A DNA stretch of 32,000 bases from positions 210,001-242,000 of the forward strand of contig CP013062.1 of assembly GCA_001430755.1 (NCBI GenBank), written 5' to 3'. Shown in pieces: positions 3,479 through 4,969 of the stretch (its first letter is position 1; each line of letters opens with the position of its first letter). This stretch comes from Candidatus Peribacter riflensis. Its GTDB lineage: Bacteria > Patescibacteriota > Gracilibacteria > Peribacterales > Peribacteraceae. The notes below the pieces were generated by a model, which was not told where the DNA came from, did no database searches, and saw nothing but the letters and a program-made list of their open reading frames with translations. The position numbers were made by a program, and so were the translations under genes.

Positions 3479-3865
3479 TTGTGTATGATCGGCCCAATTC
3501 GCATGCCCGAGCTCCTCGAAGCCGGCAGCATCGATTCCGCGTCGGAAGCGGAGGTTGCCCAACCATCTTTTGTGCCCTGGCGTCTGACGCATGGGCGGCT
3601 GGATGTGCGGCAGGAAACAGAGCTCCTGCTGCGTGCGCGCTGGGAGGAAGGGGATGCCGTGCGCCATGCCCGATTCGGGTGGAGTGGTATCGTGATTGGG
3701 AGGTGGGTGGAAGCCGACGGAACGGTCTGGGTGGCCGTGGAGTGCCAGCCCGACGAGCCGACCTCCCTGATCCCGTTCCATACTCGTGCGGATCTGCTGC
3801 TTCCGTATCGACCGTCAAATGGTAAACAAAAAGGGCACCCGCCCGAGGGGCGAGTGCCCCGGTGA
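3479..3865 (+). CDS. Hypothetical protein (128 aa)
   Basis: ATG ORF with G/C-biased third codon positions, as expected for coding sequence in this genome. No family recognised. Its 3' end overlaps a hairpin that reads as a minus-strand terminator. Confidence 0.4.
   Translation: MCMIGPIRMPELLEAGSIDSASEAEVAQPSFVPWRLTHGRLDVRQETELLLRARWEEGDAVRHARFGWSGIVIGRWVEADGTVWVAVECQPDEPTSLIPFHTRADLLLPYRPSNGKQKGHPPEGRVPR
3822..3859 (-). terminator. Rho-independent terminator, minus strand
   Basis: Hairpin GGGCAC-C-CGCCC-GAG-GGGCG-A-GTGCCC at 3833-3859, followed on the minus strand by TTTTTGTTT (complement of 3822-3832). There is no T-tract on the plus-strand side. Confidence 0.6.
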
Positions 3866-4304
3866 CTCCAACACGAGTGAGGTGTGCTGGAGATCACATT
3901 CCAGGTGACCAGTCTGGCTCCCTGTCCTTGAGCGCGCTGGAGTGTGGGCGCGCACCACTGTTTGTGTTGGTGTGAGCCCGAGTGCTCGGGCGTCGGCCTC
4001 CCGTTTATACCCTGGGAGCGGGGAATATTTGTGTTTGCCGGAGCCTAAGTGGCTCCAGTGTTGCGCGGTGGTCAGCCGCGTTCTGCACGGAGTGCAGAGA
4101 AGAGCAGGGAGGAGAGAGAAGTGACTGACCCCGCACCGTTCCGTGCGTACACGGAAGGGTGCGGGGCCTGAAGAAGATCTTCAGGAGGAACGCGAGAGTC
4201 ACGGGCGACGGGAGCGTATGAGGCCTCCGCAGCCGTGAAGTCGCGGTGTCACTTCTCACTGCTCACTGCTTTTTTTGTCAGGGAGAGGGAGTGAAAGAAC
4301 AAAT
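3822..4304 (-). ncRNA. Candidate structured non-coding RNA of unknown class (about 480 nt)
   Basis: The interval lies between the minus-strand promoter (4311-4339) and terminator (3822-3859). It has no credible CDS; the only ORFs are GTG-started and R/P/S-rich. It holds many GC-rich hairpins (4129-4166 with 16 bp, 4167-4185, 4083-4097, 4064-4080, 4040-4056, 3975-3990) and two CU-rich tracts on the minus strand. Confidence 0.3.
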
Positions 4305-4310
4305 CTAGGT

Positions 4311-4339
4311 AGTATAGCATTCTTTGCATAGTCAGGCAA
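4311..4339 (-). promoter_or_regulatory. Sigma70-like promoter, minus strand: TTGCCT-17 nt-TATACT
   Basis: The reverse complement of 4311-4339 reads TTGCCT gactatgcaaagaatgc TATACT. Predicted transcription start is near 4304, divergent from gmk. Confidence 0.45.
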
Positions 4340-4369
4340 CGCAGGAGTGAGGTAGGATGCGGACCAGCC

Positions 4370-4969
4370 ATGGCTTCTTCTGGCCCCGTTTCCGGCAAGC
4401 TTGTACTCATCATCGGCCCGAGCGGTGTGGGAAAGAGCGTGGTGCTGCGCGCGCTCAAAGCACAGCATCCCGAATACGTCTTCCCGCGCAGCGCCACCAC
4501 GCGCCCGCGGCGCCCCGGCGAAGGGGATGACCTCTACCGGTTCCTGACGGATGCCGAGTTCGATGCGCTCGTGAGAGAAGGCAAGGTGCTCGAGTGGGCC
4601 ACGGTGCATGTCGGCGCCCGCTACGGCACGCTGGAGCAGGAGATTGTTCCAGCCCTCGAGCAGGGCAAGCTGGTCGTGCGCGAAGTGGATATTCAGGGGT
4701 TTCACAGTATCCGGGTGCACCCGCTCTTCGCGGGGGCAACGAAGCGGTTTCCCCTTCTTTCCGTCTTCATTCTCCCCGAGAGCCGCGCACAGCTCATCGC
4801 ACGCATCCGCAAGCGTGCGCCCATGAGCGACGAGGAGCTTGCGCATCGCTTGCAAAGCATGGATCGTGAACTCCAGGATGCCGCCCTCTGTACCGCGCAG
4901 GTGGTGAACCGGGAGGGGAAGCTCGCCGAGACGATTGCAGAAGTGGAGCGGGCGATGAGCGGAGCATGA
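4370..4969 (+). CDS. gmk: Guanylate kinase
   Basis: P-loop GPSGVGKS, followed by SATTRPRRPGE.G.DY.F and the rest of the pattern typical of Gmk across 199 aa. Confidence 0.9.
   Translation: MASSGPVSGKLVLIIGPSGVGKSVVLRALKAQHPEYVFPRSATTRPRRPGEGDDLYRFLTDAEFDALVREGKVLEWATVHVGARYGTLEQEIVPALEQGKLVVREVDIQGFHSIRVHPLFAGATKRFPLLSVFILPESRAQLIARIRKRAPMSDEELAHRLQSMDRELQDAALCTAQVVNREGKLAETIAEVERAMSGA

Follow-up and report, generated by a model that had tools for sequence, protein, structure and literature searches.

What does Candidatus Peribacter riflensis, a very small bacterium of groundwater, keep in the DNA in front of gmk, its guanylate kinase gene? The question was raised by an earlier note, made from the letters of one stretch of this genome that is 32,000 nucleotides (nt) long (assembly GCA_001430755.1, contig CP013062.1, positions 210,001 to 242,000 of the forward strand). 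The whole stretch is called the window here and supplies the coordinates used below, except those prefixed C1, which are genome positions. The note had marked the region 3822-4339, read on the minus strand, as bracketed by a promoter and a terminator, dense in hairpins, and devoid of any credible coding sequence, and had proposed that it specifies a novel noncoding RNA (ncRNA). The source genome is one 1.248-Mb contig of 58.5% G+C. We find that window positions 4305-3824 of the minus strand form a stand-alone, single-copy RNA gene with its own strong extended -10 promoter, its own terminator, and a fold that is under selection. Negative Rfam searches, relatives that lack a coding signature, and a covarying fold support the proposal, and we regard it as highly probable that the locus is a real gene, that its product is a structured RNA, and that this RNA belongs to a new family.

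Transcription signals and limits of the RNA

Where does the transcript begin and end? A promoter scan finds TTGCCT-17-TATACT at 4339-4311 on the minus strand, with a TG preceding the -10, which is the promoter that had been claimed; the scan returns 3 promoter-like sites in 2.5 kb versus 0.5 expected. The -35 hexamer TTGCCT (4334..4339, minus) has an equally spaced TTG.. counterpart in homologues, and the extended -10 element TGCTATACT (4311..4319, minus) is retained as TGnTAnAnT in nearly all homologues across genera and families. Transcription is predicted to start at G4305 or A4304, 6-7 nt past the -10, a position deduced from that element rather than mapped. The start falls within a conserved 5' motif, AGAUUUGUUCUUUC (4293..4306, minus), which takes the form GAUUYGYUCNUU in Peribacteraceae and GAUUU.. 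or ..GUUCUUU in other families. At the opposite end is an intrinsic terminator (3824..3860, minus) consisting of a hairpin at 3833-3860 and a U tract at 3824-3832; its G+C-rich stem of 13 base pairs (bp), 3860-3832, is followed by TTTTTGTTT (UUUUUGUUU). Every homologue has a terminator, the stem sequence of which is partly retained as GGGCAYCUGCCC or GGGGCACUCGCC. The promoter-terminator bracket drawn in the earlier note therefore holds, terminator included, while the limits of the RNA itself need correction, since 4306-4339 is promoter: the unit extends from about 4305/4304 to 3824 on the minus strand and is 481 nt long. Because the extended -10 promoter is near consensus and the terminator strong, expression is probably constitutive and high and the RNA stable.

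Might this strand nevertheless encode a protein? In the alignment of the genus, variable sites show no periodicity (52/45/50 by position modulo 3; p = 0.77), and 82 of 108 indels (76%) are not multiples of three. The longest stop-free stretches differ in frame and position between homologues, Pfam recognizes nothing in an 84-amino-acid open reading frame (ORF) on the RNA region, and in the AT-rich relatives every ORF at this place is shorter than 90 codons. The lack of periodicity, the frame-breaking indels, and the shifting stop-free stretches uphold the reading that no credible coding sequence is present. A protein-coding gene with conserved codon structure in relatives had been named as the finding that would speak for a protein, and the relatives display the opposite pattern, gaining and losing whole hairpins and changing paired positions together.

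A fold under selection

How strong is the evidence for a fold? The minimum free energy (MFE) of the 484-nt transcript is -231.5 kcal/mol, versus -163.8 +/- 6.2 kcal/mol for dinucleotide shuffles (z = -10.9), and none of 100 shuffles equals it. Across ten aligned RNAs from the genus and a second genus, RNAalifold predicts 137 pairs, 24 of them compensatory; these RNAs are 480-657 nt long, and most differences between them are either entire hairpins inserted at set positions or paired substitutions within stems. For the 5' domain (window 4102-4271), an alignment of 33 sequences has standard pairs in 95.6% of its cells, and 46 of 62 pairs have changed on both sides. As a control, sliding the 3' partners by 1-3 columns leaves 44-49% of cells paired, and in 500 shuffles the observed values were never attained. 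Because this alignment was fitted to a covariance model, the test was repeated on a plain MAFFT alignment of 12 genera, in which 30 of the 62 RNAalifold pairs are compensatory and H1, H2-H4, H5, hairpin C, and the terminator are recovered.

To describe these elements from the 5' end (all on the minus strand), the 5' domain is framed by H1, a helix of 22 bp with two conserved mismatches, in which a purine-rich 5' strand, GCAGUGAGCAGUGAGAAGUGAC (4248..4269), pairs with a pyrimidine-rich 3' strand, GUCACUUCUCUCUCCUCCCUGC (4104..4125). Both strands are almost invariant, and the inner 10 bp are fully so in the 33 sequences; the two pairs that lie between the conserved mismatches have 8 compensatory changes each. 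H1 encloses a three-way junction of H2-H4, H5, and H6. The arm H2-H4 (4190..4247) has compensatory changes in 14 of 17 pairs and, in one genus member, a hairpin inserted at its tip. Hairpin H5 (CCUGAAGA-UCU-UCUUCAGG; 4167..4185), preceded by an unpaired GUUCCU that resembles an anti-Shine-Dalgarno sequence, has 7 of 8 pairs that covary across genera. Hairpin H6 (4129..4166), with 16-17 bp, has compensatory changes in 17 of 17 pairs and differs in length between genera; as had been noticed by eye, it directly adjoins H5.

The 3' half is a series of hairpins spaced by linkers that cannot mispair, even at 58% G+C, because they consist only of A and C. The first linker (the AAACACAAAUAUU region, 4024..4036) is of the ACAAACA type present in all family members; AT-rich families carry AAAAACAAAAACA in their A/C linkers. 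It is followed by hairpin A (3998-4018); by hairpin B (GCCCGAG-CACU-CGGGC; 3976-3991), the sequence of which is nearly invariant across genera; and by a second, A/C-rich linker (CACACCAACACAAACA; 3959..3974), which holds the most conserved columns of the 3' domain. Hairpin C (GCGCGC..GCGCGC; 3932..3953) has a CC-rich loop, and 5 of its 6 pairs covary in the unfitted alignment. Hairpin D (3864..3895) shows compensatory changes in the genus and is missing from the shortest homologues.

A closing helix, P1, is predicted to bring the ends together. RNAalifold pairs the leader with 3918-3926, and the helix is formed by 4285-4279 with 3924-3918. Its 5' strand, CUCCCUG (4285-4279), is part of the CU-rich leader tract (4279..4293), one of two such tracts reported earlier, both of which are present where they had been placed; its 3' strand is the purine motif GACAGGGAG (3918..3926), which reads GGUAGGGAG in most relatives. 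P1 covaries between genera, with UCCCUGUCC/GGACAGGGA in this genus versus CUACCCUU/AAGGGUAG in two others (G048 and G018).

A kissing contact between distant loops

The two halves of the RNA also appear to be joined by a tertiary contact, a predicted 6-bp kissing-loop (KL) interaction between distant hairpins that covaries across families. Hairpin KL-a (4064..4080, minus) exposes the loop UGACCA (4074-4069), which is complementary to the loop UGGUCA (3911-3906) of hairpin KL-b (3901..3917, minus). Other members have different pairs that remain complementary: AGACCA with UGGUCU in three genomes of the family, UGACCG with CGGUCA in two genomes of this genus, and GACG with CGUC in one genus. In more distant families of the class, the KL-a and KL-b loops are ACGACU/AGUCGU and CGACUC/GAGUCG (both in f26), CCAAUC/GAUUGG (f16), GACUUA/UAAGUC (f15), CGACGA/UCGUCG (f7), and CCAACA/UGUUGG (f27). 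Four genera (G095, G066, G046, and G049) lack both hairpins jointly.

How specific is this complementarity? The two loops of one genome are Watson-Crick-complementary over 5 or more bases in 41% of cases when MFE loops are considered and in 52% when all hairpins are, versus 4% and 17%, respectively, for loops paired across families. It is the loop-restricted versions of this test that discriminate; the longest complement over the whole segments does not (mean, 5.5 for own versus 5.2 for cross-family pairings). The covariation is compatible with a contact that may form within one molecule or between molecules.

Distribution

How widely is the gene found? BLASTN locates the unit in 8 of 8 genomes of the genus, at 73-86% identity, and in a second genus. 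Homologues overall are 337-657 nt long, with one copy per genome. Two covariance models of the 5' domain (R1 and R2) have no match outside the family; within it, the 5' model finds one full-length copy in 40 of 151 genomes and 28 of 84 genera, a lower yield that is explained by the reduction of this domain in some genera, where it has shrunk to a plain hairpin (as in G018). The model of the 3' domain (R3) holds only 4 base pairs and is therefore effectively a sequence profile. Of 151 Peribacteraceae genomes, 107 have exactly one match to it, and these represent 62 of 84 genera; in a sample of the class, it matches 13 of 15 genomes of the family and 0 of 135 genomes from 33 other families. An exact scan of 185,579 species genomes with the motif of the H1 3' strand returned 38 contigs, about 35 of which are titled Candidatus Peribacteria, Peribacteraceae, Peregrinibacteria, or Patescibacteria group. 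Two of the contigs are filed in a Chloroflexota bin and a Nitrosomonas bin and are probably mis-binned Peribacteria contigs.

Does the RNA extend beyond the family? At least 12 further families of the class (f2, f3, f7, f10, f12, f13, f15, f16, f24, f25, f26, and f27) have a similar unit, an ORF-free stretch of 300-700 nt upstream of gmk and on the opposite strand. These units share an order of elements: an extended -10 promoter; a 5' end of the GAUUU or GUUCUUU type; a long helix of a purine and a pyrimidine strand; the KL-a hairpin within a ..CUACUUUUCG..CGAAAGGC element; linkers of A and C only (AAAAACAAAAACA); a motif of the GGUAGGGAG type; the KL-b hairpin; and the terminator. One of these families, f25, has in-frame TGA codons in gmk and is for that reason probably recoded. 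When the order of motifs was tested on loci of the class outside Peribacteraceae, 13 of 22 were positive in the expected region and strand, versus 1-3 of 22 in three control regions, and when the R3 search was run on class loci with its filters off, 5 of 6 weak matches (E = 0.3-0.9) fell in the expected place and strand. Homology beyond Peribacteraceae thus appears well supported, although it is not proven by a significant model score.

The same motif-order test led us to reject the idea of a gmk-linked RNA across the entire candidate phyla radiation (CPR): in other classes, 1 of 19 loci was positive versus 3-5 of 19 in controls, and in the other classes of the phylum a co-oriented gene usually directly precedes gmk. 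Within the class, six families (f4, f8, f11, f17, f22, and f23) were negative or unclear for a gmk-linked unit. In one genome of f22, which is recoded (G209), a different-looking, G+C-rich, hairpin-dense, ORF-free stretch lies upstream of gmk, starting near a GGUAGGGAGG motif and lacking A/C linkers. It may represent the RNA in a much diverged form, or another kind of element altogether.

Genomic setting

The neighbor on the other side of the promoter is gmk (4370..4969, plus; Pfam PF00625, E = 1.5e-23), which is transcribed divergently from the RNA gene and has an asparaginase gene behind it in the window. The RNA gene is divergent from gmk, with asparaginase behind, in 30 of 32 loci of the family, while the downstream neighbors vary. 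About 30 nt separate the -35 element of the RNA gene from the gmk start codon; no promoter for gmk was identified. Because the back-to-back layout is fixed and this spacing so short, the arrangement suggests that transcription of gmk and of the RNA may be coupled or may compete.

On the other flank, a 128-codon ORF (3479-3865, plus) converges on the RNA gene, its last codons overlapping the terminator hairpin. Whether this ORF is real is uncertain, because it has no Pfam match and the region past the terminator is not conserved among members of the genus.

Tests against known RNA families

Is the RNA a member of a family already described? A scan with Rfam had been put forward as the way to find out. 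With Rfam 15, no family reaches the gathering score in the RNA region, and two tRNAs are all that pass in the whole window; in 15 related loci, too, tRNAs alone are found, so that no family matches the RNA in either set. Relaxing the search of 3700-4450 to E <= 10 yields, as best matches, chance hits to models of microRNAs, small nucleolar RNAs, and long noncoding RNAs far below threshold. ARAGORN reports neither a tRNA nor a transfer-messenger RNA (tmRNA) in the RNA region. The large RNAs OLE, ROOL, GOLLD, raiA, and HEARO are all in Rfam, and none appears even at E <= 10. The RNA has no match in the plasmid database, and literature searches turned up no paper that describes an RNA of this kind from Peregrinibacteria or CPR bacteria. 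Nor does it behave as a riboswitch or cis-acting leader: the unit ends in a strong terminator, and the next gene is convergent or differs between genomes.

The RNA does have the attributes by which large, ornate, stand-alone bacterial ncRNAs are recognized, a term that denotes a loose kind rather than a homologous family: it exceeds 300 nt, has many covarying helices and predicted tertiary contacts, and carries its own transcription signals.

What might the RNA do?

We lean toward the view that the RNA represents an undescribed class of large RNAs that was already present in the ancestor of the entire Peregrinibacteria/Gracilibacteria-type class, in which at least one lineage is recoded, and that is linked to gmk, has a kissing-loop fold, and serves as a housekeeping ribonucleoprotein, an RNA machine, or an RNA-only assembly. 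That it has an important function is implied by the outlay, since the 1-Mb genomes of this major uncultured lineage spend 350-650 nt and a strong promoter on it. What kind of function? The invariant strands and mismatches of H1, the invariant hairpin B, and the A/C linkers point to recognition by something that reads sequence, and this partner is most likely a protein. Our tentative proposal, to which we would give somewhat less than an even chance, is that the RNA is the folded core of a lineage-specific ribonucleoprotein. In outline, the RNA would be made constitutively at a high level, would be stable, and would act in trans; P1 would join the CU-rich leader to the GGGAG-type motif near the 3' end; protein would make contact at hairpin B, at the A/C linkers, and at H1 with its pair of conserved mismatches; and synthesis would be coupled to gmk through the shared back-to-back promoter region. 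For the explanation as a whole, in which the new RNA family and the ribonucleoprotein core are taken together, our compromise judgment is that it stands about evenly poised.

Several points weigh against this explanation. (i) No partner protein has been identified, and the sole conserved neighbor is the gene of an enzyme, gmk. (ii) H1 may be invariant for reasons other than the binding of a protein, such as RNA-RNA contacts or catalysis. (iii) P1 is weak or absent in several genera; because the two CU tracts resemble each other, as do the two GA tracts, these could also pair in an alternative register, which leaves part of the secondary structure provisional. (iv) The ends, abundance, and stability of the RNA are read from promoter and terminator signals and are to that extent presumptive. 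(v) Homology in the wider class is less firm, being argued from position, motif order, weak model matches, and loop covariation.

Could the RNA instead be a regulator? This is the alternative that survives best, though we consider it unlikely, and it comes in three forms: (i) a sponge like CrcZ for a protein that binds the A/C-rich linkers; (ii) an RNA that base pairs with a target, for example, through the exposed GUUCCUCC and H5, with the 3' end of the mRNA of a Tyr/Asn-rich protein; and (iii) a cis partner of gmk, with a face-to-back promoter that is antisense to gmk transcription or competes with it. The second form arises from a side observation. Twenty-five nucleotides spanning the junction and H5 (CGUUCCUCCUGAAGAUCUUCUUCAG, 4168-4192, minus) recur at C1:542162-542189, and blastn recovers these nucleotides, at 96-100% identity, from each of the seven remaining members of the genus. 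The second copy was examined in six genomes; there it is oriented complementarily and coincides exactly with the stop codon and 3' untranslated region (UTR) of a gene, just before the terminator. The gene encodes a small secreted Tyr/Asn-rich protein, and because the copy is complementary, its mRNA could pair with the RNA over about 25 nt. The idea of such a trans target was rejected in that the second copy is specific to the genus, and another genus (g40) has none for its own H5.

For a regulator as such, then, speak the two to three conserved single-stranded tracts of A and C only, the complementary site at a stop codon and 3' UTR that is kept in 8 of 8 genomes of the genus, and the invariant linkage to gmk with its spacing of about 30 nt between -35 element and start codon. 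Other points speak against it: no Hfq was found in this genome, and a sponge would be expected to have more than two or three linkers; the 25-nt site does not extend beyond the genus; and neither a sponge nor an antisense RNA needs a fold of 340-660 nt with long-range tertiary contacts across a class.

A rather less probable alternative is an RNA-only homo-oligomer, as known for ROOL, GOLLD, and OLE, in which UGACCA/UGGUCA and other contacts would form between molecules. Cryo-electron microscopy has revealed homo-oligomeric assemblies of these three large bacterial RNAs of unknown function (PMC12286853). The RNA described here is likewise large and ornate and has no linked gene for a partner protein, and its KL loops are not self-complementary, so they could link neighboring protomers. 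However, covariation cannot separate intramolecular from intermolecular pairing, there is no sequence or model similarity to ROOL, GOLLD, or OLE, and the gene is a single-copy chromosomal one with fixed synteny.

Might the RNA be a ribozyme, its active site formed by the invariant nucleotides of H1 and the junction? The large, complex fold with tertiary contacts and the invariant blocks of nucleotides inside helices would be in keeping with this, and such a pattern is typical of RNase P and self-splicing introns. Nevertheless, catalysis seems improbable: no substrate, processing site, or likeness to Rfam ribozyme families was found, and the invariance is concentrated in a regular helix rather than in the strands of the junction.

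Very improbable is a strongly divergent signal recognition particle (SRP) RNA, 6S RNA, RNase P RNA, or tmRNA that has escaped the Rfam models. What makes the idea worth stating is that SRP RNA is undetected in the whole genome and that the sole 6S-like match is below threshold. Yet RNase P RNA (147 bits) and tmRNA (96 bits) are both encoded elsewhere in the genome, which bears out their earlier exclusion by eye. The same holds for SRP RNA, which had been excluded in the same way: the SRP RNA models (RF00169 and RF01854) match nowhere in the genome, not even when the threshold for the large form is relaxed to E <= 1. The genome also has no Pfam match to the SRP54 GTPase and M domain (PF00448 and PF02978; SRP54, SRP_SPB), and a six-frame motif search of it found no ORF with G1 plus the DTAGR and TKxD motifs of SRP GTPases, so that neither Ffh, the protein partner of SRP RNA, nor FtsY was found. 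In the 151 genomes of the class and 81 of the phylum that were sampled, searches for the SRP GTPase domain matched P-loop fragments only. SRP subunits are absent in many CPR bacteria (PMC8080830). Because the SRP proteins were not found in genome, class, or phylum samples, no SRP RNA is expected, and identity with SRP RNA was rejected on this ground; it is also disfavored by a distribution of the RNA that is narrower than the absence of SRP.

As for 6S RNA (RF00013), it has no match in the region, and a 481-nt multibranched RNA is unlike a rod of about 180 nt with a central bubble; neither that bubble nor an SRP domain IV was seen in the RNA. Elsewhere, at C1:1156093-1156243 on the minus strand, there is a subthreshold 6S RNA match (37 bits versus a cutoff of 46.4; E = 3e-6), which may be this organism's 6S RNA. 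Finally, a protein-coding gene or small-ORF mRNA missed owing to high G+C can be dismissed, for although GC-rich homologues have stop-free stretches of 79-171 codons on the RNA strand, their frames and positions are inconsistent, the substitution and indel patterns given above (p = 0.77; 76% frame-breaking) are not those of a gene, no Pfam match was found, and AT-rich relatives have no ORF of 90 amino acids or more there.

What would it mean if the ribonucleoprotein core, or one of the related assemblies, were borne out? A housekeeping ribonucleoprotein, RNA machine, or RNA-only assembly that is both new and peculiar to these ultrasmall bacteria would then have come to light. To our knowledge, very few large, intricately folded bacterial RNAs have been recognized (the rRNAs, RNase P RNA, tmRNA, group I and II introns, OLE, GOLLD, ROOL, raiA, and HEARO), and each of those, once understood, revealed new biochemistry. 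The RNA is a compact target for structural biology that comes with a covariation-supported model, and whether it is a monomer, an oligomer, or a ribonucleoprotein is a tractable question. For CPR biology it supplies a new lineage marker, and it may connect guanine-nucleotide metabolism with a function carried out by RNA.

Comparison with known systems

Which known RNAs does it most resemble? With the universal RNAs, namely, RNase P RNA, tmRNA, SRP RNA, and 6S RNA, it shares a housekeeping-like character, seen in the single copy per genome, the strong promoter, tertiary loop contacts, and a conserved core with lineage-specific hairpin expansions; unlike them, it is limited to one class of Patescibacteria. 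CrcZ and CrcY of Pseudomonas, RNAs of about 400 nt in which A-rich motifs sequester Hfq/Crc, are comparable in length, in having stem-loops between A/C-rich tracts, and in having their own promoter and terminator. They differ in that Hfq was not found here, the tracts number only two or three, no sequence relationship exists, and neither long-range tertiary pairing nor a conserved three-way junction is a feature of CrcZ.

OLE RNA (RF01071), of about 610 nt and found in anaerobic, extremophilic Bacillota, is likewise a large, single-copy, chromosomal, structured RNA of one lineage, with many hairpins and conserved internal loops. There is no sequence or covariance-model similarity between the two. 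OLE sits in an operon with the genes of its protein partners (oapA and others), whereas the RNA described here is monocistronic, is transcribed away from gmk, and has no partner gene linked to it. For ROOL and GOLLD, locations near tRNAs or in prophages or phages are common, and the distribution is patchy; the RNA described here matches neither model and is present as one copy at a fixed locus across the class. The likeness to them is one of character: ROOL and GOLLD, of about 600-800 nt, are ornate, multihairpin RNAs with loop-loop contacts that form homo-oligomeric cages by cryo-electron microscopy (PMC12286853) and are not known to have a protein partner.

Overall, the closest known RNAs are the large, ornate OLE, ROOL, GOLLD, and raiA, together with CrcZ on account of its A/C-rich spacers. 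All model-based tests of membership failed, so the RNA upstream of gmk belongs to none of these, and our verdict is that it founds a new family of large, ornate, stand-alone bacterial RNAs.

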